In this document: positions 5,087 through 59,356 of the stretch, one piece after another | Numbering within the stretch: the stretch's first letter is position 1 | Layout: every line of letters starts with the position of its first letter | Source of the DNA: a bacterium | GTDB lineage: Bacteria; CG03 | Direction of reading: 5' to 3' | Assembly: GCA_043825615.1 (NCBI GenBank) | Contig: JBDRRS010000012.1 | Coordinates: 1 to 64,000, forward strand | Length of the DNA: 64,000 nt | The notes under the pieces: generated by a model | The model's input: the letters and a program-made list of their open reading frames with translations, nothing else | Databases searched by the model: none | What the model was told of the DNA's origin: nothing | Program-made: the position numbers and the translations under genes

Positions 5087-6463
5087 TTATGTTTTTCTCT
5101 GGATTTTCACCCTGAGTGTCGCTGGGAACTTTGCCTTGAGAATTTCTTCCGCTTTTTTCGCCGAGGCAATTGCCCTCGCTTTAACGAGAGGGTCGTAATC
5201 CTCAATCAGCGTTTCCAGAAAGTTCATCACCGAAATATCGGCAATCTCTCCCGCCGCCCAGGCGGCGGAAATGCGGTCCCATTTATTTTCCGACTGTACC
5301 ATTTCTTTCAACGTATTTTCCGAGGCGACGGCGTCGAACCTGAACATTTCAACCGCGGCATCCGCCCTGACCCTGTTGTTTTTATCTTTTAAAAACGGCG
5401 CAATAAGGCGCGCGGCGAGCGCGGGGTTGTTTACCGCCCTGGCAATTGAAACGACGCTTTTGGCGCGGGCGCGGTTGGCCGAAGAAATATCGGTTATAAC
5501 ACTCCGGGAAACCGCGCTTTCGAATTCCACATTCTCCGTCGAAGCAGATGCGCCTTTCACGCTTTTTTCCACAACGCTTATCAGATTTTCCGCCTGCTTC
5601 ATCAAATTCTCTTCCAGCGGATGCGAGCGGTTCGCCGCAATCTTCTCAAGCAGTTCCGCGTTCGCGCTTTTCAAGTCATCAAGAGAGGCGCCGACATCGC
5701 CCTTCGCCGCAAGTTCGTGAATAAGTTCTGCCGTCCTGTCGGAACTCCTGGAAAATTCTTCTCTTAGCCGCAGACTTATATTTGAAACGACCCTTGACGA
5801 TATCAGAAAACTCGCCGCAACAACGATAAAAACTGCGATTGAAAAAAAGATAAGCCATCTGGTCGCGATTATGTGCGTCTGCTGTCTTAATATTTCTATT
5901 TCCTCTTTTCTTTCCCCCAGGTCTTTCTTCGTTTTTTCTATTTCCCCGCGCATTGACTTTTCCCTTTCCTCCCTGATTCTCGTTTCTTCCGCAAGGCGCT
6001 GGTTGCTTTCTGCACGCAGTTTTTCCCGCGCGAGTTCTTCTTCCCTTTCCCTTTTTGCCGCATAGGCTCGTCTTTTCTGCTCTTCAATTTTTACGTCGTC
6101 CCTTTTCTCTATATCTTTTGTTATGCTTGCCTGCGCGTCTCTTGCTTCTTTCAGTTCCGGCGTGTATTTCAGCGCCTCTTCCGCCACACTCAGCGCGCCG
6201 TCGAGGTCGCCGGCCGCATGGCTGTCCTTGGCAAGAGACGTCAACGCCCTGCCGAGAAGCCCTATCGCCTTTAAATTACCGGGGTCTTTTTTAACGACCT
6301 CTTTCAAATCGGCCGCAGCTCCTGCCCAGTCATGCGCAAGATATTTTTCCGCCGCCTGGTCGAACAGTTTTTCCACTTCAGGCGGCTGAGCAAACAGAGT
6401 GAAGAGTGAAGAGTGAAGAGTGAAGAATAAGAAAGAGAAAAACAGGAACTTATATTTTTTCAT
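5087..6463 (-). CDS. Hypothetical secreted or membrane protein with a signal peptide, TPR-like N-terminus, long coiled coil, one TM helix and C-terminal HEAT-like repeats
   Basis: 458 aa. The N-terminus is hydrophobic, the middle is a charged coiled coil, IIATRWLIFFSIAVFIVVAASFLI is a TM helix, and the C-terminus has PBS-lyase HEAT-like repeats. Confidence 0.55.
   Translation of the reverse strand: MKKYKFLFFSFLFFTLHSSLFTLFAQPPEVEKLFDQAAEKYLAHDWAGAAADLKEVVKKDPGNLKAIGLLGRALTSLAKDSHAAGDLDGALSVAEEALKYTPELKEARDAQASITKDIEKRDDVKIEEQKRRAYAAKREREEELAREKLRAESNQRLAEETRIREEREKSMRGEIEKTKKDLGERKEEIEILRQQTHIIATRWLIFFSIAVFIVVAASFLISSRVVSNISLRLREEFSRSSDRTAELIHELAAKGDVGASLDDLKSANAELLEKIAANRSHPLEENLMKQAENLISVVEKSVKGASASTENVEFESAVSRSVITDISSANRARAKSVVSIARAVNNPALAARLIAPFLKDKNNRVRADAAVEMFRFDAVASENTLKEMVQSENKWDRISAAWAAGEIADISVMNFLETLIEDYDPLVKARAIASAKKAEEILKAKFPATLRVKIQRKT
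6397..6424. repeat. Perfect heptanucleotide tandem repeat (GAGTGAA)x4, equal to (TTCACTC)x4 on the coding strand, inside the signal-peptide codons of the 5087-6463 gene
   Basis: Read directly from the sequence; the unit length is not a multiple of 3. Confidence 0.8.
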
Positions 6464-11293: not shown

Positions 11294-12142
11294 TTATTTT
11301 CCCGCCTTGGCCGCTATTTCTTTTGCTTTGTTATAAGAAATTCTTAAGACCTCGTCAGGGTCTTCAAATCTCGAACTGCCGAGAATTTCAAGCATAAAAA
11401 TACCGTTAAAATCCGAATCCATGAGCGCGGCGGCAAATTCATCCCAGTCTATCTTTCCCTGTCCGGGGGGGAGGTGAGCGGAGTACGAACCGTCGTTATC
11501 GGAAACATGCAGCGTAAAAAGCCGGCCGGAAATGTCTCTGAGAAATTCCGAAGGATTGCCTATCATATTGGCGTGGCCCGTATCGAGACAAACGCCGACG
11601 ACATCCTTCGGAAAATCCCCGATTATTTCAAGGAGGTCGGCTGCCCAGCCGCCTAAAAGATGGGGCGCCGGATTTTCGCAGGAGACCTTCACCCTGTGCA
11701 GCAGCGCGTTTTCGCAGATTTGTTCCATGCTCTTTTTTATCCGCGCGGTTTTTTTCCTTATGAACTCGATGTCCGTAACGGGAAAGACCTTCACGCACGG
11801 ATGAATGATAAGATGCTCTGTTTCAAAAAATTCACAGATATTCACCGCTTTTTTAATTTCATTCACAGCAATATTCCTCTGCATTTCGTCAATCGAGGAA
11901 ATATCAAGCAGACCGCTGAACGGGGCGTTTATGGAACAGACGTTAAGATTCATCCCGCGGAGGTGCGATTTTATTTTTTCAAGAACATCCCCGTCATTAT
12001 AGTTGAAGTGGGTATTCCTGCCCCATTTTTTCGCGCCCGCCCAGAGTTCCACATTCTTAAAACCCGCATTTTTTATTTTATCCAGACAGGAAAAAATATC
12101 CTTGTGGTAAAAAAGACCCGTTGAAATCCCGACGTCAAGCAT
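11294..12142 (-). CDS. Sugar phosphate isomerase/epimerase (xylose-isomerase-like TIM barrel)
   Basis: 282 aa with the overall pattern of a TIM-barrel AP-endonuclease-2 family protein. Confidence 0.7.
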   Translation of the reverse strand: MLDVGISTGLFYHKDIFSCLDKIKNAGFKNVELWAGAKKWGRNTHFNYNDGDVLEKIKSHLRGMNLNVCSINAPFSGLLDISSIDEMQRNIAVNEIKKAVNICEFFETEHLIIHPCVKVFPVTDIEFIRKKTARIKKSMEQICENALLHRVKVSCENPAPHLLGGWAADLLEIIGDFPKDVVGVCLDTGHANMIGNPSEFLRDISGRLFTLHVSDNDGSYSAHLPPGQGKIDWDEFAAALMDSDFNGIFMLEILGSSRFEDPDEVLRISYNKAKEIAAKAGK

Positions 12143-21091: not shown

Positions 21092-21365
21092 TAAACTTCT
21101 TTCAAAATCATCTTCTACAACTCTCCCGCAATTTCTTTTCAGGTGCTTCCCTCTGTTTTCTAAAACCTGTTTATTTTAACAAAACATCCCGACTTTTAGC
21201 AATTGATAAGATTCTTAAATCTGCATTATTCATACTCTCCGGGGAAAATAGGGTCACCTCTATTTATTGGAAAATGGGTCACTTCTGATTTATTTGAAAA
21301 CTCCCTCATTATGAATAATGCAGAATAAGATTCTTAAATCACAACGCACTTATTGAATAAAGGTT

Positions 21366-22193
21366 TTACTTTATGATTTTAAATCTTCTTCCGTTGCTTT
21401 TAACAACTACCGTTCCGCGATTTTCCGTTGAAAGCACTTTAATTCCGAGTTCTTCTAAAATTGAAAGCACTTTTTCTTCATCTTCGGGCTTTCTCCATTC
21501 GCTCTCACCGGTCGAGATAACAGCAATACTTGGATCGACGGTTTTAAAAAACACGCGGGACGGCTGCTTGCCGTGATGGGGCGCTTTCAAAACTTCGCTT
21601 TTAAGTTTGTCTCCGTATAATCCTGCCAACTCTTCGCATATTCGCGAACTGATATCTGCCGTGAAAAGAAATCTCACACCGCCGTGGGTCATCTTTAAAA
21701 CCAGGGCGGATTCGTTTAGATTGTTGCCGGGCTTCTCAGGATGCAGAACTTCTATTTTAAAATCCGGTTCATCAACCATTATATCGCCGCGTTTTAAAAT
21801 TACGCATTCAATGTTTTTTCCCGAAGACAGTTCCCTGAGTTCCGCCCATTCTTTTCTCCCCGTCATGCCTTCGTTTGTCAGAAGTTTCCCGACCTCAATG
21901 TTTTGGAGAACTTCCGGCAGACCTCCGATGTGGTCTGGATGCGGGTGCGTGGCGACAACAAGGTCCAATCTTTCAATTTCCTCCTCTTTCAGATAATTTA
22001 AGATTTTATCCGATTGTTCCGGATAACCCCCGTCTATAAGAAGATTCCCGCAAATTTCATTTTCTATCAAAATACAGACCCCGTAACCGACATCGATGAA
22101 ATGTACACCCAGTTTGTTTTTCTCCTTACAACCCAAACAAAATAAAGTCAGAACTAAAAGTATTATTATTTTTTTCTTAATCATTTTATCCAA
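21366..22193 (-). CDS. MBL-fold metallo-hydrolase (ComEC C-terminal-domain-like) lipoprotein
   Basis: HPHPDHIGG metal-binding motif, and a lipobox LFCLGC. Confidence 0.75.
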   Translation of the reverse strand: MDKMIKKKIIILLVLTLFCLGCKEKNKLGVHFIDVGYGVCILIENEICGNLLIDGGYPEQSDKILNYLKEEEIERLDLVVATHPHPDHIGGLPEVLQNIEVGKLLTNEGMTGRKEWAELRELSSGKNIECVILKRGDIMVDEPDFKIEVLHPEKPGNNLNESALVLKMTHGGVRFLFTADISSRICEELAGLYGDKLKSEVLKAPHHGKQPSRVFFKTVDPSIAVISTGESEWRKPEDEEKVLSILEELGIKVLSTENRGTVVVKSNGRRFKIIK

Positions 22194-22471
22194 TTCTGCA
22201 TTAAGTATTTTTCTTCAAATTCATCAATTATCGTTTCTTTGCTCCGTTCATTTATCCTAAAAGAACGCCCGTTTTCTCCCAACCGCTCAGCAACGTCCTT
22301 ATTTTTTTTCAATTTATAAATATTTTCCCTTAATTCTTCCGGTTTTTCCGGAAAAATTACTATCCCAAATTTATATTTTCTTGCAATGTGCGATATTTCA
22401 CAATTATCCGCAGCCGCTATAATCAACGGTTTGCCCGCAGAAGCCGGGCCGAATACTTTAGAAGGCATCAC
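22181..22471 (-). pseudogene. Remnant of a GT-B (family 1/4) glycosyltransferase C-terminal domain
   Basis: 96 aa resembling only the C-terminal E..G.P.I motif region (VFGPASAGKPLIIAA...) with no N-terminal domain. Confidence 0.4.
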
Positions 22472-22485
22472 TATGTCCCCTCCGC

Positions 22486-23661
22486 CTAATGAAATACGAC
22501 TACCTGTTTATACACCTCACAAGTTTTTGCAGCAATTTTATCCCAGTTATAATTTTCTTTTAGATTCTTTTTTTGGCTATTTTTTTCTTCTTCGCTGATG
22601 CCCAAATTAAATAAGTTAATCATCGTCTTCGACAAATCATTTACATTGCCAGTTTCAAAAAACCTAAAATCAGGCAAATGAACTTCTCTGTTCTGTGGTA
22701 TATCACTCGCAAGTACGGGCAAACCATAACTCAACGCCTCGAGCAAAGCAATCGGCAAACCTTCATAGTAGGACGGCAAAACAAAAAGTCCTGCATTAGA
22801 AAACAACTCCTGTAAGGGCTCTCCAGATATAAATCCAGTCAGAATAACCCCCGCTGTCTCTTTCGCCAATCTTTTGAGTTGCCTGCTATATTCTGTTTCA
22901 TGGTCAGCATCTCCGGCAATAACAAGTTTAAATTCCGAATTTTCAATCCTTCTGTATGCCTTAATTAAATCATGTAGCCCTTTCTCGGGAACAAACCTGG
23001 CGGCGGTAAAAACATATTTTCGCGGTTCAAGAGAAAATCGCTCCAATGCCTTCCCCTCCGAAACAATGTCAGGAAATGTAACACCATTCGGGATATAGCC
23101 TGATTTTTCGGCACTACATGTTTTTTTTTCCAGTCTTTGTTTTATCCCTCGTGAAATTGCTATTATCCTGTTGGCAAATGAGATACCCATATATTCACCT
23201 GCCCTTAAAACCAATTTAGCAGCAGACCCCCATTTTTTTCTCTCATAATCCGGCCCGTGATGTGTCATCACAACTTTTAATCCTAATAGTCTTGCCAACG
23301 GGACTAACAGCGACGGACCAATAGCATGAATATGCAGAATATCAGGTGATTTTCGCCAGGATACGATTACCCCCAGAAAAGTGTGGATAATCGCTTCAAA
23401 ACTTTTTTTTCTCGGACACCAGAGGTGAATAAATTTTATTCCCCTCCACTCCGTTAATCTTTCCTCCGCAGGAATATACGGCGTTCTTGTAAAAACCGTA
23501 ATATCGCAGCCCAGTTTCACCAGCCTCGGATAAAGTTCCTCACAATGTTTTTCCACCCCGCCCTGAACATGCGGAAAACCTCTTGTTCCAAGTACAATAA
23601 TTTTTATTTTATGCAAATTTTCTTTCCAAGTAATGATTTGATTTTGCTTTTCAAAACCCAT
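22486..23661 (-). CDS. Glycosyltransferase family 4 (GT-B)
   Basis: 391 aa with a C-terminal EGLPIALLEALSYGLPVLASD motif. Confidence 0.75.
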   Translation of the reverse strand: MGFEKQNQIITWKENLHKIKIIVLGTRGFPHVQGGVEKHCEELYPRLVKLGCDITVFTRTPYIPAEERLTEWRGIKFIHLWCPRKKSFEAIIHTFLGVIVSWRKSPDILHIHAIGPSLLVPLARLLGLKVVMTHHGPDYERKKWGSAAKLVLRAGEYMGISFANRIIAISRGIKQRLEKKTCSAEKSGYIPNGVTFPDIVSEGKALERFSLEPRKYVFTAARFVPEKGLHDLIKAYRRIENSEFKLVIAGDADHETEYSRQLKRLAKETAGVILTGFISGEPLQELFSNAGLFVLPSYYEGLPIALLEALSYGLPVLASDIPQNREVHLPDFRFFETGNVNDLSKTMINLFNLGISEEEKNSQKKNLKENYNWDKIAAKTCEVYKQVVVFH

Positions 23662-24593
23662 GCGGCCGGTTTAAAAATATTTTTTTTCATAGCCGGAGAA
23701 GCGGTTCCAATCATCCAGCAGTTTTTAGCGCATTTCCCAATATCCGATTTTATTTTCACAGCTTTTTCGCTGTTCCATATTTCATCAAAAGTGTTTTCAT
23801 TCAAATTACCCATGCTGTTTTCGGAGGAATCAGTATCCAGACCGTTGCATGGCCTTATTTCGCCGAAAGGATCAAGAAAAAACATATTCTTACCCGCTCC
23901 GCAGGGCAAAAGCCGGGTATTGCCTTTTATGTAATTTACCAGTCCGTAATTAAAATATGCGCGAAACCAATTCTTTATCCTGTTGGTTCTAAGAAGCTCA
24001 TTCACAATCTCTTCAAAACTGCTTATAACCTCTTTTTTGTTTTCAATGCTGTTATCATGCTTATGAAAATAATAGGAATTATGCACCGCCGCGGTGGCGA
24101 ACTCAACATTCATAGATTTTGCAAGCTGATAAAGTTCCAGCATATCCCTGTGATTTCGGTCAGATACGGTTATACCGAAACCTATGTCTTTCAAACCTAA
24201 GCGCTGTAATTCAAGCAAAGTTCTAATGCCGTGGTCAAAACCATCCTTTATTCCCCTGAGTTCGTCATTAGCCGCCGGAAGCCCCTCTATACTTATTCTC
24301 ACCCCGAGACGATTGTTTCCAAGTGTTTTCGCAAGCGTCACTATTTTTTCAGTAAAATAACCGTTTGTGCTGATTACCACTCTGTCTGCTTTTTTTAAAA
24401 GTATCTTTACAATATCTTCAATATCAACCCGCAGAAAGGGCTCACCTCCGGTCACATTCGCAAATTTCAAATGAGGCAGTTTTTCAAGTATCTCCGGCTT
24501 AAATTCCTCTTCTATCGTCGTAGGATACTGCCAGATATTGCACATCACACATTTGCAGTTGCACCTATACGTCGTTATTATTGCTGCTTCCAT
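23604..24593 (-). CDS. Radical SAM enzyme with a probable C-terminal SPASM/twitch Cys cluster
   Basis: CNCKCVMCNIW (CxxxCxxC) at the N-terminus, with additional Cys motifs near the C-terminus. Confidence 0.8.
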   Translation of the reverse strand: MEAAIITTYRCNCKCVMCNIWQYPTTIEEEFKPEILEKLPHLKFANVTGGEPFLRVDIEDIVKILLKKADRVVISTNGYFTEKIVTLAKTLGNNRLGVRISIEGLPAANDELRGIKDGFDHGIRTLLELQRLGLKDIGFGITVSDRNHRDMLELYQLAKSMNVEFATAAVHNSYYFHKHDNSIENKKEVISSFEEIVNELLRTNRIKNWFRAYFNYGLVNYIKGNTRLLPCGAGKNMFFLDPFGEIRPCNGLDTDSSENSMGNLNENTFDEIWNSEKAVKIKSDIGKCAKNCWMIGTASPAMKKNIFKPAAWVLKSKIKSLLGKKICIK

Positions 24594-25280
24594 TATTTTT
24601 TCTCTACCAAAGCAATTAAATTTCCTGTGATACCAAAAATTTTTTGTTTATACAATCTTACTTTAATTTTCTTTGGAAAAAGTGAAAGAAATCTCTTCCC
24701 TGTTAAAAGATTGAGATGATTTATATCAGCCCAGTACTCTCTTCCAAACTTCTTGTAAATCCAGAACTTCATTTTGGGGGGCAACCAATGAGCAAATGGG
24801 AGTAACGTATGAGGATCAACTGGAAAACAATAATTTGGGGTAGTAATAAATGCCTTCTTGCTTACTCTCAAAATTTCATGGATAAATCGCTTCTGTTCAT
24901 TCCCCCCCCCCTACATGTTCTACCACTGCATTTGAGAATACAATATCAAAACAATTATCGGGGAATGGGAGGTTTTTACCATCACCAAAAACTAATCTTA
25001 CCTTCGGGAAACGTCTATTAAAATTTTTAAACTTTTCAGATTCATCATTGGTCAAAGCCGTAATATTTTCTGGATAAGGATACCATAATTCTAAAAAATT
25101 AGTCGCTCTGCCCAAAAAAGGACTAACCCCCACATCAAGAAGTTTCTCTACCCGTCTTGGTTTCATAAGAGAAATAAACAAATCATATTTGTTTTTTCTT
25201 GATTTCAATATTATCTTTTCAGTTTTTTTCCAAAGCAATCCGTCAGGCCATTGCAAAAGTTTTTCTTTAATCTGTTTCAT
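24593..25280 (-). pseudogene. Class I SAM-dependent methyltransferase split into two ORFs (24897-25280 and 24593-24871) by a frameshift at a G10 homopolymer; a candidate phase-variable gene or a homopolymer sequencing error
   Basis: The N-terminal ORF ends ...VEHVGGGE* at the G10 run. Removing one G gives in-frame read-through (GGGNEQKRFIHEILRVSKKAFITTP...) into the downstream ORF. Confidence 0.6.
24902..24911. repeat. Homopolymer C10 (G10 on the coding strand) that causes the frameshift
   Basis: Read directly. Confidence 0.9.
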
Positions 25281-26235
25281 CGGTACTTAATTTACTGCCG
25301 TTTCCATAATTAGTGTTTCCTTTTTCTTTAGCCCCAAATAAAAGAAATGATTTTATTCTAATATCTTCTTTAGAGGCATTTCTAAATTTTTTAGACAGCC
25401 AAATTTTTGATTTCTTTACATACTTCTCTTTATAGACCCTGTTTGGTTGAATTTTTACATTCTTAAAACTTTCGTTTACGAGCATTTTGTGATATTCCGA
25501 AGGAAGTACTCTATTAGGAGAACCTTGAAACTTCAGCAAATTCCATAAAAAATCAGAATAACGGTAAAGGTTCAAAGGATCAATATCTCTTAAAATACCC
25601 GTATGCGTTCCTGTATCAACCTCACCAAATATAATTCCGTTTTTCCTCATTTTTCTATATATTTCTTTAATAACCCAACTAGGGTTATCAAGATGTTCCA
25701 TTACCGCTTGGCTTATAACTAAATCGTATCGCCCGCTCAGATGCATGTCAATGTTGTATTGCCTGTCCGAAATATACATGAAATTTCCCGAAAATTCCCC
25801 ATTACTGATTTTTTCAACCGCATTTTTAGCTCTCTCAAAAAAAGGATAATTCTTCAATTTTTCAAGTAATATCTTATAAAATAGAAGCGGCGTTTGCCTA
25901 ATAAGACGAAATTTGTCAAACGCAGTATAACTTCGAGCGCCGAAAGCAAGAAGTATTACCCCTGTGCCTAAATCGGGACCTGGGCCAAGTTCCAGTATAT
26001 CCTTGTTCTCAAAAACTAACTTGCTTTCACTATATTCCCTTAGATATCTTCTCCATTTTTCCACATAATCAAAAACATGTAGAACGCTTCTTTCTACCTG
26101 CTTGGAAGAAAAAGTTCTAGGGCTGGTATAGCCCATAAGGAAATGTCTATATTTGTTACCCCACCGCAACAAAAGCCCCAACAAAAAACAGAAACACTGA
26201 TTGGCGCGTGAAGGGCCTACCGTTTCTATTCTCAC
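25267..26235 (-). CDS. Class I SAM-dependent methyltransferase
   Basis: ILELGPGPDLGTG glycine-rich SAM-binding motif. Confidence 0.7.
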   Translation of the reverse strand: MRIETVGPSRANQCFCFLLGLLLRWGNKYRHFLMGYTSPRTFSSKQVERSVLHVFDYVEKWRRYLREYSESKLVFENKDILELGPGPDLGTGVILLAFGARSYTAFDKFRLIRQTPLLFYKILLEKLKNYPFFERAKNAVEKISNGEFSGNFMYISDRQYNIDMHLSGRYDLVISQAVMEHLDNPSWVIKEIYRKMRKNGIIFGEVDTGTHTGILRDIDPLNLYRYSDFLWNLLKFQGSPNRVLPSEYHKMLVNESFKNVKIQPNRVYKEKYVKKSKIWLSKKFRNASKEDIRIKSFLLFGAKEKGNTNYGNGSKLSTDETD

Positions 26236-27470
26236 TTTAAGTTACCTTTGTTTTTTTCTATTGCCAACTGATATAATCTCATCAATTCTTTATAATGTTT
26301 TTCGGCATTAAACTTTTCTTCAACAAATTTCCTCGCATTTTTACCCATCTGAACAATTTTCTCAGGAGATGATATCAAATCCATGATCTTTTCTCTTAAA
26401 TCTCCTGCATTCCCTGCCTCGAAAGTATAGCCGGTATCAGCATCTTTGACAAGCTCCGGTATTCCGCCAATCCTTGCTCCAATGACAGGTTTGCCTAAGG
26501 CAAACGCTTCCAAAACTGTTCTTGGATTATTTTCATACCATTCAGAAGGAATAACAACCGCAGACGAGTTTTTAATTTCATTATCTAAATCATTCCCTGT
26601 TTTATAACCTAAGAATCTAATGTTTTTAACTCCATGGTCTTCAATGTAATGTTTAAGCTTTTCCTTTATCTGGCCATCCCCGATAATTTTCAATTCAACA
26701 TCATCCAGTCCTTTCATTGCCTTTATCAAAGTAACTAAACCTTTTTCATGCGAAAGGCGGCCAAAATAACAAATTGATTTTCCGTTGTTTTCATACTTAG
26801 GGATAAATTCTCCCGGATATATACAATTCGGCAAATATTCAATTTTGTGCTTGAACCCCATTTCTTTGAGTTTCTCTTTCAAAAACATACTAGGCGAAAT
26901 AAAAATATCAATGTCATCGTAAATATGCAGAATTTTATGATGTAAATACATCTCCACAACATTTATAAAACTTTTCAAATAAGAATTTTTTGTACATTTT
27001 TTGACAAAGCACCAATAATATTTGCTGTTTTTGCACCTTTCACACGGTACCCCGTCAACTAACATAGAATAAGACGGACAAACAAGCTTATAATCATGCG
27101 AAGTCATCACAACAGGAATGTTGCGTTTTTTAAAAACATGCAGTATAGACGGCGATATCTGATGCGCAAAATTATGCAGATGGATTATGTCAAATGACTC
27201 ATGGGATAAAAGCCTCTTGATTTTGTTTTTTGCCTCTAAAGAATATAAAATCTTTAATACAAAACTTATGCTCGTTTTAAAACCGCTTGTTTTATAATCT
27301 ACTTTATCCACAAAAAAAACTTCATATTTAAACTCCAAATTTTTTTCATGCCGCATTCCCCAATATGCGACTTTATGCCCTTTTTCTTTAAGGAGTTTCC
27401 CAGTATTAAAAGTTACTATCGCATCCCCCCCTTTAGGGTATAAAAATTTATTTATCAGCAAAACTTTCAT
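26232..27470 (-). CDS. Glycosyltransferase family 4; contains a G7 tract at codons 13-15
   Basis: 412 aa with a C-terminal EWYENNPRTVLEAFALGKPVI motif. Confidence 0.8.
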   Translation of the reverse strand: MKVLLINKFLYPKGGDAIVTFNTGKLLKEKGHKVAYWGMRHEKNLEFKYEVFFVDKVDYKTSGFKTSISFVLKILYSLEAKNKIKRLLSHESFDIIHLHNFAHQISPSILHVFKKRNIPVVMTSHDYKLVCPSYSMLVDGVPCERCKNSKYYWCFVKKCTKNSYLKSFINVVEMYLHHKILHIYDDIDIFISPSMFLKEKLKEMGFKHKIEYLPNCIYPGEFIPKYENNGKSICYFGRLSHEKGLVTLIKAMKGLDDVELKIIGDGQIKEKLKHYIEDHGVKNIRFLGYKTGNDLDNEIKNSSAVVIPSEWYENNPRTVLEAFALGKPVIGARIGGIPELVKDADTGYTFEAGNAGDLREKIMDLISSPEKIVQMGKNARKFVEEKFNAEKHYKELMRLYQLAIEKNKGNLK

Positions 27471-28160
27471 TTACTTTTTAGCTATTACGACTATTGTTTC
27501 TGAAATGCCAGGCAAAAGCGGAAGAAATTTTATTCTGCTCAGCCCGCATTGTTTCAGCTCTTTGTCAATTTGATGATATGTAACAGGATGCCATTCTGCC
27601 CTCCTTTGTTTCCTTCTTATTAGATTTTTGATACAATTTTTATGATAATAAGCCAAAATAAGAACACTCCGTGATACCCTCTTTAACTCAAGAATTATTT
27701 TTTTTCTATTGTTTTCGGGGGTATGCCCAAATAAGCGTAATGAAACACAGGCATCAAAACTATTTTCAGGATATGTTAATTTTTCTGCATCTTTTTCTTC
27801 TACCACTATATTTTCCTCTAAATTGAGCGATTTTAGTTTTTCTCTTGTACACATAACCATTTCGTTCGAAAGATCTACCCCTACAACTTTATATCCCTTA
27901 CTAGCCAAATAAATGGATAATCTCCCTGTCCCGCAAGGAACATCAAGGAGCCTATTCGGCGGTTTTATATTTGCCAAATTTAGAGCCCTCCCTATTAATT
28001 TCAGCTCCATTTTATTAACAATTTTACCTTTAAAATTCGTAAACCGATCCTTATCATACGTTTGAACAACTCTCTTATTCTGGTACACCTTTCGCGCCCT
28101 ATACCCTCCGTTTCTTTGTTGAGAAACCGCATCCTTACTAAAATCATTCTTGTCCGCCAT
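27471..28160 (-). CDS. Class I SAM-dependent methyltransferase
   Basis: LLDVPCGTGRLSIYLA motif I. Confidence 0.75.
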   Translation of the reverse strand: MADKNDFSKDAVSQQRNGGYRARKVYQNKRVVQTYDKDRFTNFKGKIVNKMELKLIGRALNLANIKPPNRLLDVPCGTGRLSIYLASKGYKVVGVDLSNEMVMCTREKLKSLNLEENIVVEEKDAEKLTYPENSFDACVSLRLFGHTPENNRKKIILELKRVSRSVLILAYYHKNCIKNLIRRKQRRAEWHPVTYHQIDKELKQCGLSRIKFLPLLPGISETIVVIAKK

Positions 28161-29370
28161 ATAATGCCTCCCAATTCTTCAAATACTCTTCACATATTTT
28201 TTCAATATTAAATTCTTCAGCAACAAATTCCCTCGCTTTATTTGAAATTATATTTAGATTAAAACTTTTTACTTCTATACATTTTGATATGATATCCGAA
28301 TAATCATCTACAACAAAACCGGTTTCGCCGTCTTCTATTAATTCCCCCCCCCCCCTTACTCCTGTAGTCATGACAGGCGTCCCCATGCTCATCGCTTCAA
28401 TCCATGTCAATGGCGGCGCTACTGTTGATTCTTTTTTTCCAACAGGAGAAAAGAACACATCAGCCGATTCAAGAAGTTTATTAAATTCATCTACATTTGT
28501 AATAATTTGCACCTTTTGACACGCCTTTTTAATATATTTTGTTTTATAACTTTCAGGCTTGAAAGCAAAAATAAATTCTATATCATCGCATTTTTGTACC
28601 ACTTCTTTTGCACTATCAACTGCGCGGTAAAAATCATCTTCCTGTATCTGTTGAATTCGCCCTGACCATAAAAACAATTTATTTTTCACGGAGCATCCGT
28701 ACTTCATTTTGATTGCATTTTTTTCTTCGAACGAAAGCCTTTTTTTAGGCATTTTTACACCCCAATGTATAACTTCCATTGTTTTGGGGGATATTCCTAT
28801 ATCAAAAAGTATTTCTTTATATGCCTTCGTAAAAGGAAACAATCTATCCAATTTCTTAAAACTGAGCTTAAGATAATTGTCATAAAATTTTCCTCGGGGG
28901 TTATAACTCGCTGGCGAATAAGTCATTTTTATATGTGGATATTTTTTCTTTAAATGCGGCATCACTAATCCAAAATTATCCATAAAATGTATCACCCCTA
29001 TATTTGATTTCTTAATAATTTCTGAAATATACTTTTCATACCACACAATAGTCAAGAATCTTTCTATCATTTCCCGGGGTTGTTTATGTTCGTGGTGATA
29101 ATATATTTTATCATTTATGCGTCTATAAAATCTTTTCCTATATAAATGGAAAGGACGTTTTAAATTGTGTATCATTACTTCTTCTTTTCCTGTTTTTTGA
29201 ATATATATTGGGACATCTTGATCATTGATAGATATTACTTCCGCCTTAACTTTTTCTGTTTTGACAAGTAAATCAATCATTTGACAATAAAAATTCTTCT
29301 CACCTGCTGTTATATACGGAAAATAACCCACGCCTATAAACATAACATTCTTCTTGTTTTCTTTATTCAT
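28144..29370 (-). CDS. Glycosyltransferase (GT-B, family 1/4); contains an in-frame G12 homopolymer
   Basis: C-terminal WIEAMSMGTPVMTTGVRGGGELIEDGETGFVVDD; the GGGG is encoded by the G12 run. Confidence 0.75.
   Translation of the reverse strand: MNKENKKNVMFIGVGYFPYITAGEKNFYCQMIDLLVKTEKVKAEVISINDQDVPIYIQKTGKEEVMIHNLKRPFHLYRKRFYRRINDKIYYHHEHKQPREMIERFLTIVWYEKYISEIIKKSNIGVIHFMDNFGLVMPHLKKKYPHIKMTYSPASYNPRGKFYDNYLKLSFKKLDRLFPFTKAYKEILFDIGISPKTMEVIHWGVKMPKKRLSFEEKNAIKMKYGCSVKNKLFLWSGRIQQIQEDDFYRAVDSAKEVVQKCDDIEFIFAFKPESYKTKYIKKACQKVQIITNVDEFNKLLESADVFFSPVGKKESTVAPPLTWIEAMSMGTPVMTTGVRGGGELIEDGETGFVVDDYSDIISKCIEVKSFNLNIISNKAREFVAEEFNIEKICEEYLKNWEALYGGQE
28344..28355. repeat. Homopolymer C12 (G12 on the coding strand) inside the glycosyltransferase ORF
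   Basis: Read directly. Confidence 0.9.
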
Positions 29371-51356: not shown

Positions 51357-53528
51357 CTATTTTAATATATTAGAATTAACCTCAAATACAGTGATGCTTG
51401 ACGTAGCAAAAACTGGCTTTAATTCACTTCTAAATGGAAAATCCGACAAGCCGGATTTATAGTATAGTAAATAATTTATATTATACTTCCTGAATATTTT
51501 CTTAGCCAAACCAATATCCTTAATTTTGCTTAATTGCCGGAAGACTTCGTCTCTCTTATCAGTTTCGCTTTTGTAAATAACAGACATTGTCCAAACACTC
51601 TCAAAAAATGCCCGCCTGCCGGTAAACGCAGAAAAAATATGTCCCTTTTGCCGGTTGCTAATTATCACTGAATTAACAGGTGTTTTATCTCTTAAAAAAC
51701 AATACGCCAAATATTGATCCTTATTAAATTTTTGTACATGTGAAACGTTAATTGGGTTTCTCTTTTCAGCTATGAGCAATGACCGTGGGAAAATATAATT
51801 AAAAAACATAATTGTGCATGTAACAAATAAACTTTTTTGATAAAAAAATGTTTTCGTACCCAGTAATACTTTTATTTTCTTATAGAACAAATTAAAACCA
51901 CTTATCCCTAAAATTACAGAAAACAAACTTACAATTGTTGCTGAATGCCCCGCTACATTCCATGATGTAAATCGACCGGCATCTTCCTGAATAAGAAAAA
52001 GACTTACAAAAATTACTCCAAGCCATCCCATAAAAATGCTGTAATCAAGGAAATTTAAAGTTTTAGACCTTATTTTTTTAACAATATATACCAATATAAA
52101 AGGGAAATAAATCCCCGGCATCCTTATGAAAAATTGAATAAAAATTACAACAATCCGTCTTATATCTACTGGCAAACGTCCGACAAGGTGTAAAATTTTT
52201 CCTGTTATAAAGTATTGACTATATACATGATCTGCATATAACCCATATTTAATTCCTATTTTGGCCACTACAGGCGACTGCATAGAATAAAATATGAATA
52301 TAATTCCAAAGCAGACAATAAATAAAAAACAATACAGGTAACCCCTGTTATAGATTTCACTTTTCTGTTTATGATTTTTTCTTGAAAAAGCAGAGGGAAC
52401 TCCATACAAATAAGATAAATCTTTGTAAAAATACTGCTTGTATATATGTACCAGCCCAATAATTACAGCAAAAGATGGAAATATAACAATAAAAAAATTT
52501 GCCTTAAATTGAAACATTACTATAGAAAAGAACGCTGCCATATAAAGAAAAACAATCCTTTTCTGTCGGTCAAAAAAATTAAGAGAGAGGAAAAATCCCA
52601 TATAAATCAAAAACCCAGCATATGCCGGAGGGTTATGAAAAAGATATTTTAAAAGTCCTGCATTATCATTTCCTATGATCGTTACTTGCCCATTTGTGAA
52701 AAAATACAAATAAAACATTATAATGGCTACATAGCCCATTACAGTGGAAGTTGTCAGCCTTCTGATTAAAATAAATAAACTTGAGGCAAACAAAATATCG
52801 CGGAAAATGGGAAGAAAAATATGATAGATTTGAAACATATCTATCTTGCTGAATTTTGCCATAACAGCTATAAACACATCGGGAAATACATGATATACTG
52901 GAAAGGGATATCCCGCCAAGCAAGGATTTTGCTGAGGCGGACAGTTTTTTAAAATTTCCTGCACAAAACTTAAGTGGATTAAATGATCATGATATTGTGT
53001 ATAAATAAATTTAAAAGGGGATTCAACCAAAAAATATTGTAAATCATGAGCATTAATAATTATTACCAAACAAATTAATAGAAGAAGCATAAAATCGACT
53101 TCTTTTATTTTATGCGATATCACAACATTTTTCTTTTTCAAAGCACCAATTAATATATACATATGGGAAACTACCGCTAATCCGCAAATAGCAAAATATC
53201 CCATTTCAAAACCTATCCCACTTAGAACAAAGAAAAGAGCAGTGGTCAGAGGATATCCAATAAGACAGGAGAAAACAATTTTTTCAAACAAATTTAAATT
53301 ATTTATTTGCGCTAACCATACAACTGCCCATCCTATTGAAAATACAAGAACATATATTGAAAATGCAAACCCGTAAAATTCTTTCCAAGAAAAAAATAAA
53401 AAACTTCTTAAAAACAAAACAGTAAAAATTGAGATGGCAATTATTCCAAACACTTTCAATTGGTTTTTTAAAACATCTGATAAATTAAACTCTCTATGGA
53501 ACAATAAATAATTAAGAGTTTTTTTCAT
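51357..53528 (-). CDS. Large polytopic membrane protein, a candidate GT-C-type glycosyltransferase/oligosaccharyltransferase-like enzyme
   Basis: 723 aa with more than 14 predicted TM helices; no soluble catalytic motif identified. Confidence 0.4.
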   Translation of the reverse strand: MKKTLNYLLFHREFNLSDVLKNQLKVFGIIAISIFTVLFLRSFLFFSWKEFYGFAFSIYVLVFSIGWAVVWLAQINNLNLFEKIVFSCLIGYPLTTALFFVLSGIGFEMGYFAICGLAVVSHMYILIGALKKKNVVISHKIKEVDFMLLLLICLVIIINAHDLQYFLVESPFKFIYTQYHDHLIHLSFVQEILKNCPPQQNPCLAGYPFPVYHVFPDVFIAVMAKFSKIDMFQIYHIFLPIFRDILFASSLFILIRRLTTSTVMGYVAIIMFYLYFFTNGQVTIIGNDNAGLLKYLFHNPPAYAGFLIYMGFFLSLNFFDRQKRIVFLYMAAFFSIVMFQFKANFFIVIFPSFAVIIGLVHIYKQYFYKDLSYLYGVPSAFSRKNHKQKSEIYNRGYLYCFLFIVCFGIIFIFYSMQSPVVAKIGIKYGLYADHVYSQYFITGKILHLVGRLPVDIRRIVVIFIQFFIRMPGIYFPFILVYIVKKIRSKTLNFLDYSIFMGWLGVIFVSLFLIQEDAGRFTSWNVAGHSATIVSLFSVILGISGFNLFYKKIKVLLGTKTFFYQKSLFVTCTIMFFNYIFPRSLLIAEKRNPINVSHVQKFNKDQYLAYCFLRDKTPVNSVIISNRQKGHIFSAFTGRRAFFESVWTMSVIYKSETDKRDEVFRQLSKIKDIGLAKKIFRKYNINYLLYYKSGLSDFPFRSELKPVFATSSITVFEVNSNILK

Positions 53529-54315
53529 TGATATTGTTCCTTTGCATATTCTTTTTATTAAAATCTTTGTCCGTTTTTAAGGACTGCAAATAACCTTCAT
53601 TTCTTATAATATGCATATTTATTTTTGCCAACTCCGGTTTCCTCCGTAGTAACTTGAATATATCCTGATATGTGAAATTTTTTTTATCTTCTTTGCAAAG
53701 TTCATCAAAAATAGCCTTCAAAAACTCATAATCTTCCGGCTCGTCAATAGTCCATCTATAATTTACTTTATTCCTGAACTTTTTGTAGCCACCCACTTTA
53801 AACCGGTCTTTGCTTTTCTCAATAAAAGCGCCAGCGACATGCTCCCTTTCCGACGGTAAAATTGTCTCTTTAAAGGCCTCTTCCAGCGCTTTAAACGAAT
53901 ACACCGTCACATCAAGACCGTCGGGAAAATCACCAGACAAACCGTAATAATCAAAGCCGCCTTTTATAAACCGTTCCACCACCTCATCAACTATGCCCGG
54001 ATCTATTACAGGGCAATCCGCCGTCACTCTGACAATATTATCCAAGCCGTATTTTTTCGCCGCGTAATAATACCTCGCAAGCACGTCGTTAAGACTACCG
54101 AAAAAAACAGGAATCCCCAGTTCGTCCGCAACTTTTTTCAATTTCCTATCCGATTTTTCGGTTGAAGTGGCAAGAATAACACAATCAAGCTTCCGGCAGC
54201 TCTTCAATCTCTTTAAAACATGCCATAGAACCGGCTTTCTTGATAAGGGCAAGAGCACTTTTCCTGGCAATCTTTCGGAGCTCAGTCTTGCTTGAACAAT
54301 TGCACCTGTTTTCAT
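53512..54315 (-). CDS. Acylneuraminate cytidylyltransferase family protein (CMP-nonulosonic acid synthetase, PseF/SpsF-like)
   Basis: N-terminal AIVQARLSSERLPGKVL signature. Confidence 0.75.
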   Translation of the reverse strand: MKTGAIVQARLSSERLPGKVLLPLSRKPVLWHVLKRLKSCRKLDCVILATSTEKSDRKLKKVADELGIPVFFGSLNDVLARYYYAAKKYGLDNIVRVTADCPVIDPGIVDEVVERFIKGGFDYYGLSGDFPDGLDVTVYSFKALEEAFKETILPSEREHVAGAFIEKSKDRFKVGGYKKFRNKVNYRWTIDEPEDYEFLKAIFDELCKEDKKNFTYQDIFKLLRRKPELAKINMHIIRNEGYLQSLKTDKDFNKKNMQRNNINEKNS

Positions 54316-55475
54316 TTTTTATCACCGGGAAAAATTGCAATTTCAAACTTTTTTATTTCTTTAATGATTATTTTTTGATCTCTTTTCCTTAATTTATTAT
54401 AAAACGGTAACCTTACTAATCTTGAGCTAAAATCCTCCGCAATTGGAAAATCCCCTTTTTTATATCCAAATTTTTTTCCCATCACAGAAAGATGCAAGGG
54501 GACATAATGAAATATTGCGCATATTTTTTTCTCTTGCAGTTTTTGAATTAGCTTATCTCTTAATTTATGCGATGGCAATAACAAATAAAACATATGATAA
54601 TTTGGCTTAGTATTTTGGGGGATCACTGGAAGTTTTATATACCCCTGCTTTTCCAATGGTTTCAAATTTTCATAATAAAACCAAAATATTTTTTTTCTCA
54701 TTTCTTGTATCTTTTCCATACTTTCCAATTGAGCATATAAATAAGCTGCAAGTAAATCAGACAATAAATAACTTGACCCCACATCAACCCACGTATATTT
54801 ATCAATCAAGCCCATATTAAACTTCTTTCTATTTGTACCCTTCTGTCTTATTATATCCGCTCTTTCAAGGAATTTATCATTATTAATAATTAATGCCCCT
54901 CCCTCACCGCAACTGTAATTTTTTGTTTCATGAAAACTGTACGCTCCAAAATCACCTATGGTTCCTAAATATTGATTTTCATATTTTGCGTTAACTCCCT
55001 GGGCGGCGTCTTCAACAACATACAAATTATGCGCCTTTGCTATTTGCATTATCTTGTTCATTTCGCATCCAATACCGGCATAATGAACAGGGACTATGGC
55101 TTTTGTTTTTTTCGTGATTTTTTTTTCTATTTCATTTTCATTTATATTCAAGGTATCTTCTCTTATATCCACAAATACCGGTTTTGCCCCCCTTAAAACA
55201 AAACTTGTCGCTGTTGACGGGAATGTATAAGCAGGCATTATTACTTCATCTCCTGCTTTTAAATTAAGTAAAAGTGCCGCCATTTCCAGTGCAGAAGTAC
55301 AAGAAGGTGTTAAAAGAACCTTCTTTGCACCAATAATTCTTTCTAACAGTTTAGATACTTTTTTTGTAAACTCACCATCACCGGAAATACATAAATTTTT
55401 CAAAGCTTTTTTCATATATTTAATTTCTTTATAAGTTCCATATGGTTTGTTAAAAGCAATTATTTTTCGTTTCAT
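54312..55475 (-). CDS. DegT/DnrJ/EryC1/StrS-family PLP-dependent sugar aminotransferase
   Basis: 387 aa with conserved fold-type-I motifs. Confidence 0.8.
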   Translation of the reverse strand: MKRKIIAFNKPYGTYKEIKYMKKALKNLCISGDGEFTKKVSKLLERIIGAKKVLLTPSCTSALEMAALLLNLKAGDEVIMPAYTFPSTATSFVLRGAKPVFVDIREDTLNINENEIEKKITKKTKAIVPVHYAGIGCEMNKIMQIAKAHNLYVVEDAAQGVNAKYENQYLGTIGDFGAYSFHETKNYSCGEGGALIINNDKFLERADIIRQKGTNRKKFNMGLIDKYTWVDVGSSYLLSDLLAAYLYAQLESMEKIQEMRKKIFWFYYENLKPLEKQGYIKLPVIPQNTKPNYHMFYLLLPSHKLRDKLIQKLQEKKICAIFHYVPLHLSVMGKKFGYKKGDFPIAEDFSSRLVRLPFYNKLRKRDQKIIIKEIKKFEIAIFPGDKK

Positions 55476-56383
55476 TATTGTTCTAAAATGGCCAAACCTA
55501 TACCGGTCTTGCCGTAGCCATTACCGTTGTAAAGCATGTATTTTTTACCATTATGTTCAAAAACATGAGCATAGCATATCATTTCGGAATCCCAGCCCGT
55601 GTCGGACACATCAATGCCCACCTCATTGTCCTTCCTTTCCCACCGTAACCCATCTTTAGATTCGGCATAGCCGATTCTGTAACTCTTCCCGCGATAAGAA
55701 TACCACATTTTATAAATACCGTTTTCCTTGAGAACGCAGGGGCGGGCAATAGCATATTCATCCGGCGATTTAAAATCTATACAAACAATCCCTTTTCTAT
55801 CCCATATAATTCCGTCCTTAGATTCAGCATACTTGATATGATAATAATGTTTTGGCGCGTTGTTTTCCACTGTCCATTTTATTCCGGACACATACCACAT
55901 TCTCCAAATGTTATTTTCAATCAAAACGCAAGGGCTTGCCACAAAACAGGCATCATAGATGCTTCTATCCACGACAGGTCCGTCACCATATTTCTCAAAC
56001 GTCCTTCCTCCATCATAACTAAGCGCCAAACCTATAGAATTTCTAAACGGCAATGTTCCCCCAGTATTCCATCCTATATAATACAAGTACATGCAATTGC
56101 TATACTCGCATAACCACGACGCCATAGCCCCTGACTCATCAAAAGTGCCGAACTCACCAGTTTTTATTATTGGTTCACTTGCTATACTAAAAACTTCTTC
56201 TGGCTTATTGATATTAATTTCAATGAATCCAATTTGGGATTTATTAAATATACTACGTCCACTAAAATAGATACGATATAAATCATGGTCTATCCTAAAT
56301 GCAAACGGAACCGCGGCATGGAAAACCATCCATTTCAGATTCTTCGGCGGCTCAAAGATAAGACCTTTTTTTATCCACTTCAT
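55475..56383 (-). CDS. Hypothetical beta-propeller protein, glycoside hydrolase family 32/43-like
   Basis: Repeated W/Y-rich blade motifs (WYVSG, MWYSYRG, YAESKDG x2). Confidence 0.4.
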   Translation of the reverse strand: MKWIKKGLIFEPPKNLKWMVFHAAVPFAFRIDHDLYRIYFSGRSIFNKSQIGFIEININKPEEVFSIASEPIIKTGEFGTFDESGAMASWLCEYSNCMYLYYIGWNTGGTLPFRNSIGLALSYDGGRTFEKYGDGPVVDRSIYDACFVASPCVLIENNIWRMWYVSGIKWTVENNAPKHYYHIKYAESKDGIIWDRKGIVCIDFKSPDEYAIARPCVLKENGIYKMWYSYRGKSYRIGYAESKDGLRWERKDNEVGIDVSDTGWDSEMICYAHVFEHNGKKYMLYNGNGYGKTGIGLAILEQ

Positions 56384-56401
56384 TTATTAAGTTTATATGC
56401 C

Positions 56402-57061
56402 CTACAATTTTATCTTATCGCTGTTTATTTTAAAAAGCGGGGTCCTCTGCGGAACATATACTCCTTTCTCAACAGTATCTTTCATAATAATCGCTCCGGC
56501 ACCAATTAATGTTTCAGCTGCAATTGTAATTGAATTACGCAAAGTCGCATTAACACCTATAAAACAATACTTACTGATATGAACATTTCCCGACACAACA
56601 ACATGCGATGTAATAAAGCAGTGGTCTTCAATAACCGAATCATGCCCTATATGGTTTCCGCTCCACAGTGTCACGTTATTTCCTATCTTCACAAAAGGCT
56701 GGATTGTGTTGTTTTCCAGAATAAAGCAGTTATCCCCCACAGGTTTGTCGCTTAGAAAAGTGCATTTGCTGCTGATGTATGATACCAACTGATAACCCTT
56801 TTCTTTCGCCATGCAAAACTTCTGCGCTCTAATTTTATTCATTTCGGCATAACTAAGAGCTATGAACATCTTATGGGTTGATGGAGAACATCTGTCTACA
56901 ATAGCTTCAAAATCAATAATCGGCAATCCCATAAAATTATCACCTGTCATATACTTGCTGTCAATGGTAAAACCAACCACTTCATGCTCGCTATCACAAG
57001 AAAAATAATGGTGCGCCAGTTTTGCAATATCGCCTGTTCCAAAAATAATTAGTTTAGCCAT
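56402..57061 (-). CDS. PglD/NeuD-family sugar N-/O-acetyltransferase (left-handed beta-helix)
   Basis: N-terminal Rossmann-like IIFGTGDIAK plus C-terminal hexapeptide repeats. Confidence 0.75.
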   Translation of the reverse strand: MAKLIIFGTGDIAKLAHHYFSCDSEHEVVGFTIDSKYMTGDNFMGLPIIDFEAIVDRCSPSTHKMFIALSYAEMNKIRAQKFCMAKEKGYQLVSYISSKCTFLSDKPVGDNCFILENNTIQPFVKIGNNVTLWSGNHIGHDSVIEDHCFITSHVVVSGNVHISKYCFIGVNATLRNSITIAAETLIGAGAIIMKDTVEKGVYVPQRTPLFKINSDKIKL

Positions 57062-57705
57062 TATTCCTCTTTTCTCACCAGTATAGTGAACTCATATAAT
57101 GGATAATCATGTAATACGGCAATCAATCTTGAGAAGTTTTTTTTGCAATAGTCAAATAAAAAAAGTGGATCTGCATAAAAAAGATTATGCCTCATAAATT
57201 CGGGGTCAGAATACTTTGTCAACATATTGAAAGCAAAGCCTTTCTTGCTTATTTCCGCTAATTTTCCGAGAGTGCGAAGCACATAATCTTTCCATGCGTC
57301 ATCGCTCGTTCGCATCTTGACATTAAATATACCGCTGGCAACCGTATAATCTGTAATACTAATGTCCTTTTCATCGGAAGTAAAAGCACAATTTTTTAAA
57401 CTGCCGTATTTTGCTCGAGCCGCATCAATCATGTGTACTGATATATCAAATCCATTATATTCAAATTGGTACCCTTTTTCCGCTAAATACCCTGCCAGTG
57501 CGCCATAACCGCAACCATAGTCAGTTAATGTAAAATACTGACTCGTGTTAAAGATCTTGAGGAGTTGTTCGAATCTTAATTCCTGAGACTGCGCCGAATT
57601 CCAATCTACACCTTTTGGGAATGGGCCATAAACATCAAGTTTTTTATCATAATATTGTTTTGTTTGAAATAAAATATCGTCAAATATCATTTTTTTACCT
57701 TTCAT
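57061..57705 (-). CDS. Class I SAM-dependent methyltransferase
   Basis: TDYGCGYGALAGYLA motif I. Confidence 0.65.
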   Translation of the reverse strand: MKGKKMIFDDILFQTKQYYDKKLDVYGPFPKGVDWNSAQSQELRFEQLLKIFNTSQYFTLTDYGCGYGALAGYLAEKGYQFEYNGFDISVHMIDAARAKYGSLKNCAFTSDEKDISITDYTVASGIFNVKMRTSDDAWKDYVLRTLGKLAEISKKGFAFNMLTKYSDPEFMRHNLFYADPLFLFDYCKKNFSRLIAVLHDYPLYEFTILVRKEE

Positions 57706-58615: not shown

Positions 58616-58616
58616 C

Positions 58617-59318: not shown

Positions 59319-59356
59319 TCTAAAATTAATATCCTTTATATTTTATATTTGAATAA

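Follow-up and report, generated by a model that had tools for sequence, protein, structure and literature searches.

A poly-G tract splits a methyltransferase gene in the surface-glycan island of a deep-groundwater bacterium: a candidate slipped-strand switch

The window analysed here is a stretch of 64,000 nucleotides (nt) of DNA (positions 1 to 64,000 of contig JBDRRS010000012.1, assembly GCA_043825615.1) from an uncultivated bacterium. On its minus strand, a gene for a class I methyltransferase dependent on S-adenosylmethionine (SAM) is divided into two parts by a run of ten G residues (G10), which appears as C10 on the plus strand at 24902-24911. The elements of the divided gene are as follows.

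24902..24911, minus strand: the G10 homopolymeric tract and proposed slippage site, one G above the in-frame G9
24897..25280, minus strand: the N-terminal open reading frame (ORF) of the methyltransferase, proposed OFF-state product of 127 amino acids (aa), ending in VEHVGGGE and the stop codon TGA at 24899-24897, with a Methyltransf_11 match
24593..24901, minus strand: the C-terminal part of the methyltransferase, 102 codons, open to a TAA at 24595-24593, in frame at G9 or G12 and out of frame at G10

An earlier note on this DNA had placed the split, with its VEHVGGGE-stop ending, exactly at the C10 run, and this was confirmed by the listing of ORFs and homopolymer runs. The minus-strand codons at the tract are GCA GTG GTA GAA CAT GTA GGG GGG GGG GAA TGA, and the ten G residues encode Gly124-Gly126 and supply the first base of the following codon. 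The 127-aa ORF corresponds to NCBI protein MFH1957597.1, and its ATG lies 14 nt inside the upstream gene. When the gene was rebuilt in silico with 7 to 13 G residues, G9 gave an uninterrupted product of 228 aa and G12 one of 229 aa, whereas G7, G8, G10, G11 and G13 gave truncations of 126-137 aa. The fusion of the two parts that the note had predicted for 9 or 12 G residues was therefore reproduced, at a length slightly above the predicted figure of about 225 aa. As at a contingency locus, gain or loss of repeat units toggles in silico between a full-length and a truncated product, and the intragenic G10 tract exceeds the length from which G/C runs become hypermutable (7-8 or more). The hypermutable cut-off of G7 or more and the modal lengths of G9-G10 used for comparison were taken from PMC6321876, in which the modal tract lengths for the genus Campylobacter are G9 (53%) and G10 (26%).

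Long G/C runs are exceptional in this DNA, which has a GC content of 39% overall and of 30-36% around the methyltransferase gene. The lengths of G/C runs in the 64 kb decay geometrically up to 7 and are followed by two outliers, the C10 run and a C12 run at 28344-28355. In 100 dinucleotide-preserving shuffles, the mean number of G10 matches per window was 0.07, compared with four overlapping matches (from the two tracts) in the actual sequence, and none of the 100 shuffles reached four. No G/C run of 9 or more was found in 80 loci of GTDB representative genomes that code for relatives of the methyltransferase (about 880 kb, many of them far richer in GC), in which only two runs reached 8, and no tract of G10 or longer was found in the 21-kb core part of the window. 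The claim that G/C tracts of 9 or more are rare in AT-rich DNA of this kind was thus borne out by the run-length counts, the shuffles and the 880 kb of homologous loci, and the G10 tract is no chance product. Two shorter runs were considered as further switches.

27425-27431: G/C run of 7 at the N-terminus of the glycosyltransferase gene at 26232-27470
11465-11471: G/C run of 7 in a gene of the apurinic/apyrimidinic endonuclease family

Both fit the geometric decay of run lengths and were judged to be due to chance.

The full-length G9 product matched the Pfam family Methyltransf_11 (PF08241) with 44.2 bits, against a cut-off of 21.2 (E = 3e-11). Its relatives number in the hundreds, measure 222-241 aa and reach identities of up to 75%; they come from metagenome-assembled genomes (MAGs), which belong to Omnitrophota, Elusimicrobia/Endomicrobia, Kuenenia, Deltaproteobacteria, Spirochaetes, Patescibacteria, Chloroflexi and Actinobacteria. 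The G9 product aligned without gaps with 35 homologs and has exactly the length of the family. In these homologs the tract site reads VEHVG-x-x-x-[EQ]Q without a frameshift, with Gly124 invariant and the next two positions variable. An AlphaFold (AF2) model of the G9 product, with a predicted local distance difference test score of 87.6 and a predicted template modelling score of 0.86, places residues 124-126 in a loop between the strand at 111-117 and the helix at 126-139. According to this model, the OFF product would lack helix D (126-139) and strands 5-7 of the Rossmann fold. Foldseek matched the model to class I methyltransferases at probability 1.00 (for example 8ys9, 3l8d, 1ve3 and RebM 3bus), and the model and these matches agree on a Rossmann-like fold of seven strands. 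The matches include the sugar O-methyltransferases RebM and AtmM; none of the matches from NCBIfam, from the PDB sequence search or from Foldseek went beyond class I methyltransferases in general to assign a function or substrate. It is the gene context that points to a glycan as the substrate.

A second long tract lies 3.4 kb upstream of the first in the same operon-like array, within a gene for a glycosyltransferase of family 4 (GT4).

28344..28355, minus strand: G12, the second tract, which lies in frame (ON) in the GT4 gene listed next
28144..29370, minus strand: the GT4 glycosyltransferase gene with the G12 tract, 408 aa, identified by Pfam Glycos_transf_1 / Glyco_trans_1_4

The codons at this tract are GTA AGG GGG GGG GGG GAA, encoding V R G G G E in the C-terminal nucleotide-sugar-binding motif region, where the protein aligned without gaps with 14 homologs. 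Rebuilding the gene in silico at G10, G11, G13 or G14 cut the protein to 343-355 aa. In the closest GT4 homolog (71% identity) the corresponding residues are R-G-V-D-E, encoded by AGA GGT GTG GAT GAA, and the closest homolog of the methyltransferase has the equally ordinary, mixed codons GTG GGT AGA GAA GGC GAG at its site. Since the closest homologs use mixed codons at both sites, the G10 and G12 tracts appear to be derived in this lineage. In the alignments, made at G9 and G12, both tracts occupy variable loop positions beside an invariant glycine. One island thus carries two long G tracts in two glycan genes, with the methyltransferase OFF and the GT4 gene ON.

The earlier note had described the surroundings of the methyltransferase gene as a surface-glycan locus, and Pfam matches throughout the region confirmed that it is a surface-glycan island. 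Its genes encode four GT4 and two GT2 (family 2) glycosyltransferases, Wzy_C, Polysacc_synt (Wzx), an asparagine-synthase homolog and ATP-grasp enzymes, and at least seven genes with methyltransferase domains are scattered through it. A set of nonulosonic-acid genes at 53512-62356 encodes a Polysacc_synt_2 dehydratase, DegT aminotransferases, a hexapeptide acetyltransferase, a NeuB synthase, a CTP_transf_3 cytidylyltransferase and WbqC. This set looks complete and of the pseudaminic/legionaminic type. The GC content is 30-40% across the island (21300-64000), compared with 45-50% in the core genes (1-21000). In relatives whose GlgA proteins are 95% and 86% identical to that of the window, the synteny of the core is kept and the glycan island is absent at this site; the 86% relative (L086, a 93-kb contig from the Joint Genome Institute, JGI) has a HinfI-type restriction-modification system in its place. 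The low GC content and the different content of the 86% relative suggest that the island is variable or acquired.

Apart from the tract, the divided gene is intact. Alignment and a reading-frame check of both halves revealed no second inactivating lesion of the kind that the earlier note had named as the mark of a dead pseudogene. The out-of-frame C-terminal half has kept all of the family-invariant residues Q129, P148, P153, H157, P161, H164, P167, L189 and F201, and its mean identity to the 35 homologs was 59.7%, in line with the 57-58.5% obtained for five intact members in the same comparison. Neither the multiple lesions nor the relaxed downstream conservation of a fixed pseudogene is therefore seen; a single frameshift is followed by a frame that is open and conserved. 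Judged by its sequence, the gene has the appearance of a recent or regularly reverted slip and not of an old pseudogene.

A rival account is that the gene is a young pseudogene. On that account, the tract arose without selection from GGG glycine codons, and one slip led to a recent and effectively irreversible inactivation within an acquired, decaying island. The G10 frameshift is indeed the sole lesion seen, GGG triplets are not forbidden (22-25% of glycine codons), the island holds a probable glycosyltransferase remnant of 96 aa at 22181-22471, and its atypical GC content and its absence at the site in a relative suggest flux and decay. We nevertheless consider such an inactivation unlikely. 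The gene has no further lesions and a downstream half conserved as in intact homologs, the longer G12 tract in a neighbouring glycan gene is in frame, and the closest homologs are free of tracts at both sites. Two runs of G10 or longer occur in 64 kb where 0.07 would be expected, an independent member of the family (L090, described below) carries a tract at the same site, and G10 stays highly revertible by the very mechanism that broke the gene.

The DNA was recovered from granitic groundwater of borehole SA2600A at the Äspö Hard Rock Laboratory, 345 m below sea level. Sequencing run SRR26275509 consists of Illumina NovaSeq DNA reads, and the MAGs of the study were assembled with MEGAHIT (PMC11484514). 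For the GlgA protein encoded in the core part of the window, the best matches are 95%, 86% and 75% identical, followed by others at about 55% (Elusimicrobiota and others). The relative at 95%, GCA_043811795.1 / JBDRMV, is MEGAHIT-group-1.849, which GTDB places in p__CG03; f__CG03, with an estimated size of about 2.0 Mb and a GC content of 46%; MEGAHIT-group-3.104 is a sister MAG of the same CG03 family (PMC11484514). This comparison indicates that the source is most likely an uncultivated CG03 bacterium with a genome of roughly 2 Mb.

The 127-aa product is also present on a Logan contig of SRR26275509, a separate assembly of the same run, and this contig is identical to the window at 14,019 of 14,019 bases, G10 and G12 included. 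Look-ups with proteins at the edges of the window led to Logan contigs only, and these add at most 1.6 kb of sequence. Of the genes that tile the 64 kb, more than 60 are intact ORFs and only the methyltransferase gene is split, despite seven runs of T9, 32 runs of A8 or T8 and hundreds of shorter A/T runs. A poly-G read-tail artefact of the NovaSeq platform was considered and rejected, because the tract is internal, its unique flanks match the homologs codon for codon, and exactly three glycine codons are replaced.

The earlier note had given a homopolymer error as the alternative to a switch. In that case the true tract would be G9 and the gene intact, and the extra G would have been introduced by polymerase chain reaction stutter in the library, by the way Illumina sequencing handles long G runs or by the consensus step of the assembler. 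No context is more prone to indels than homopolymers of 9 or more, and G is the dark base in the two-colour chemistry of the NovaSeq. The two assemblies share one run, and L090 is also off by one, as a systematic artefact would give. However, two assemblers agree over the 14,019 bases that include both tracts, the longer and more error-prone G12 is in frame, there is no other frameshift in the 64 kb, and poly-G tracts of such length have been reported to be accurately sequenced on Illumina instruments (PMC6321876). A miscount is thus quite unlikely, and if it were real, a G9 tract would still be a candidate switch, with its state (ON) changed and its kind unaltered.

The divided gene belongs to a recurrent cassette in the order GT4-methyltransferase-radical SAM/SPASM-GT4, which was found in six other loci from different phyla. 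The remaining members of the cassette in the window, and one additional gene, are as follows.

22486..23661, minus strand: the downstream GT4 gene of the cassette (Pfam and cassette comparison)
23604..24593, minus strand: the radical SAM/SPASM gene directly downstream of the methyltransferase gene and its conserved partner in the six other loci
25267-26235: an extra Methyltransf_23 gene, between the upstream GT4 gene and the switch gene
26232..27470, minus strand: the upstream GT4 gene of the cassette (Pfam and cassette comparison)

In the sequence TAATG at 24595-24591, the stop codon of the full-length methyltransferase frame shares bases with the ATG of the radical SAM gene, and the OFF frame ends about 300 nt upstream of the radical SAM start. 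Because the OFF-state stop lies this far upstream of TAATG, translation of the radical SAM gene may also drop; the gene may be translationally coupled to the ON frame only, which would make the OFF state polar. A scan for sigma-70 promoters and terminators between 22 and 32 kb stayed at background level and is uninformative in such AT-rich DNA, and Rfam and tRNA scans of the window returned tRNAs near its start only and nothing at the G10 tract.

JGI metagenome contigs were also scanned for the motif N-A-V-x-E-H-V followed by at least nine G residues, and one contig matched. This contig, Ga0164318_10020067 (L090; 6.5 kb, 41.6% GC), comes from another metagenome and carries the same GT4-methyltransferase-radical SAM/SPASM-GT4 cassette. 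Its radical SAM/SPASM protein is 61% identical to that of the window and its methyltransferase 43% identical, compared with 60-75% for the tract-free homologs. The L090 gene has a G9 tract (2715-2723) at the same three glycine codons, where it is out of frame and yields a product of 117 aa; in silico, G10 gave 211 aa and G7 gave 210 aa, both colinear with the family. The methyltransferase and radical SAM genes of L090 are 43 nt apart. On the basis of these two sequences, the tract at this loop would either have arisen twice or have been kept across a deep divergence, with both copies at an OFF length. As for other copies of the gene of this strain, a collection of 15 billion proteins gave the identical 127-aa product only, in a cluster of one, and a search of the JGI metagenome contigs with the exact DNA flanks of the tract found nothing.

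The two genes require opposite corrections, -1 nt in the window and +1 nt in L090, which argues against a conserved programmed frameshift. RNA polymerase slips on long homopolymers, and recoding by polymerase slippage or by ribosomal frameshifting across G10 would mean that some full-length enzyme is always made. Although polymerase slippage makes some leakiness of the OFF state plausible, the 35 homologs read straight through the site without a frameshift, and the conserved shift and common direction of correction that characterise programmed frameshifting are both missing. No stimulatory element was seen, in an analysis that made no search aimed at one. Recoding is accordingly a very improbable explanation of the divided gene.

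Collectively, the tract itself, its rarity, the frame logic, the integrity of both halves, the G12 run and the equivalent out-of-frame run of L090 make a slipped-strand contingency locus, currently OFF, the best reading of the methyltransferase gene; for a tract known from one metagenomic consensus, we put the probability of this reading at roughly 0.7. The earlier note had proposed just such a switch, and every checkable element of the proposal held: the tract is real and exceptional, it lies in a methyltransferase gene of a glycan locus, and the G9 product is colinear with the 35 homologs.

Several observations weigh on the other side. Both assemblies were built from the same reads, so that a systematic miscount at G10 is possible. 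The Logan contigs pass straight through both tracts and so do not suggest a strongly mixed population, but a minority would have been lost to bubble-popping. The 64 kb contain two tracts only, and none was found in the roughly 32 kb of core genome of two relatives. The pattern that retrieved L090 could detect tracts at this site only and passed over tract-free members uncounted. Finally, cells of the deep subsurface grow very slowly, and switching that depends on replication would be correspondingly slow in real time.

Under the contingency-locus reading, G10 would be a hypermutable simple-sequence repeat in a gene for a class I SAM-dependent methyltransferase, and this enzyme would modify a surface glycan of the Wzx/Wzy type that contains nonulosonic acid. 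Slipped-strand mispairing during replication would add or remove a G. With G9 (or G12), the full enzyme of 228 aa would be produced and the glycan methylated (ON); with G10, the majority state in the sample, translation would stop at codon 128 (OFF). The G12 tract of the GT4 gene would serve as a second and independent switch, currently ON, and the two tracts could give four surface glycan states within one clone. Through the TAATG overlap, the OFF state may lower expression of the radical SAM gene as well. We infer from this scheme that tract length varies within the population and that switching is frequent and reversible; the polar effect on the radical SAM gene, the substrate of the enzyme and the nature of the selective agent are put forward in the same way. 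The selective agent is likely to be phage or another antagonist that recognises the cell surface. Phage pressure is proposed by analogy with Campylobacter jejuni, in which phase-variable capsule modifications allow escape from phage (references in PMC11868660).

Among described systems, the nearest is the capsule locus of C. jejuni NCTC11168. The genome of this strain has 29 polyG/C tracts of at least 7, and the capsule cluster accounts for six of them (PMC8437040). One gene of that cluster, cj1426, is responsible for the 6-O-methylation of heptose; its switching rate, determined with a reporter, was about 2-3 x 10^-2 (PMC8437040). The window gene resembles cj1426 and cj1420 in carrying an intragenic poly-G tract of about 9-10 in a SAM-dependent methyltransferase gene and in its ON/OFF control through a translational frameshift, which is predicted here from the sequence. 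The setting is also similar, with an AT-rich polysaccharide locus, several tract genes that include glycosyl or sugar transferases, and genes of the nonulosonic-acid type. The likeness to cj1426 is one of gene class and tract and not of sequence relatedness. Further, the gene comes from a groundwater bacterium that has not been cultivated, probably a member of CG03, and not from a host-adapted epsilonproteobacterium, and its locus has only two tracts. Across Campylobacter, tracts are frequent in genes for SAM-methyltransferases and radical SAM proteins, and phase variation is considered to have arisen on many occasions (PMC6321876). Campylobacter fetus likewise pairs methyltransferase and radical SAM (MoaA/NifB/PqqE/SkfB family) genes in tract-rich surface loci with tracts of G8-G10 (PMC6321876), although the radical SAM gene of the window is without a tract and the likeness is again by gene class and not by locus homology.

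The second tract has different counterparts among known systems. Poly-G and poly-C tracts in glycosyltransferase genes for lipooligosaccharide or lipopolysaccharide toggle glycan extension in Neisseria (lgtA/C/G), in Helicobacter (fucosyltransferases) and in Haemophilus. The GT4 gene with G12 at 28144-29370 fits this pattern (reviewed in PMC11868660), but the glycosyltransferases of those genera belong to other families, and the window tract, in frame at present, is situated in the C-terminal donor-binding motif region. The 7C run of Mycobacterium tuberculosis glpK is a further parallel, described in PMC10334774 as an adaptive, reversible frameshift at a short G/C run in a slow grower. That case differs in concerning a metabolic gene and shorter tracts and in drawing on thousands of isolates, as opposed to the single metagenomic consensus available here. 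In outcome, the proposed switch also resembles the inverton capsule loci of Bacteroides, in which surface glycan variants are turned ON and OFF stochastically within a clone. There the mechanism is site-specific inversion, whereas slippage is proposed here, and no invertase or promoter inversion is involved at 24.9 kb.

These comparisons allow a broader proposal, which we advance tentatively and would rate at somewhat less than even odds: that a mobile glycan cassette, shared by Omnitrophota, Deltaproteobacteria, probable CG03 and other MAGs, gained or kept a poly-G switch at the loop Gly124-126 in at least two distant lineages, both caught OFF. If so, localized hypermutation of surface glycans would extend beyond host-adapted pathogens and commensals to free-living, slow-growing and uncultivated bacteria of the deep terrestrial subsurface, presumably under phage pressure. 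Phase variation by simple-sequence repeats has been worked out almost wholly in host-adapted Campylobacter, Helicobacter, Neisseria and Haemophilus, and the present locus suggests the same bet-hedging device in a candidate-phylum bacterium, probably of CG03, from groundwater at 345 m. The mechanism is already known; the novelty lies in the gene family and its cassette, in a tract that recurs at one loop and in the occurrence in an uncultivated lineage of deep groundwater. If confirmed, the tract would make it possible to recognise from sequence that selection on cell-surface glycans fluctuates in the deep biosphere, most plausibly through viruses. There is also a practical warning, in that 'frameshifted' MAG genes at G/C runs should not be dismissed as errors or pseudogenes.

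Three further features were observed in the window. Just downstream of the GT4 gene that ends the cassette, the 96-aa ORF at 22181-22471 on the minus strand has a weak Glycos_transf_1 match in the Logan annotation and no Pfam match at 1e-5; it is probably a glycosyltransferase remnant. In the core part, a perfect heptanucleotide repeat, CTTCACT x 4.4, lies at 6396-6426 on the minus strand, within the signal-peptide codons of a TPR/HEAT-repeat protein (ORF 5087-6463). Gain or loss of one copy shifts the frame, the 86% relative (L086) is without the repeat at this position, and Logan contig SRR26275509_60875 begins exactly at the array. The array may be another slippage site, with 4 copies that fall below the usual cut-offs.

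At the boundary between core and island, an element at 21206-21340 is marked by perfect direct repeats of 16 nt (ATAAGATTCTTAAATC). These flank perfect inverted repeats of 15 nt, TCTGCATTATTCATA and TATGAATAATGCAGA, which are 75 nt apart and enclose two tandem units of 26 nt. A 44-kb Logan contig stops inside this element, at 21262. The element could be an insertion resembling a miniature inverted-repeat transposable element or a small invertible segment.

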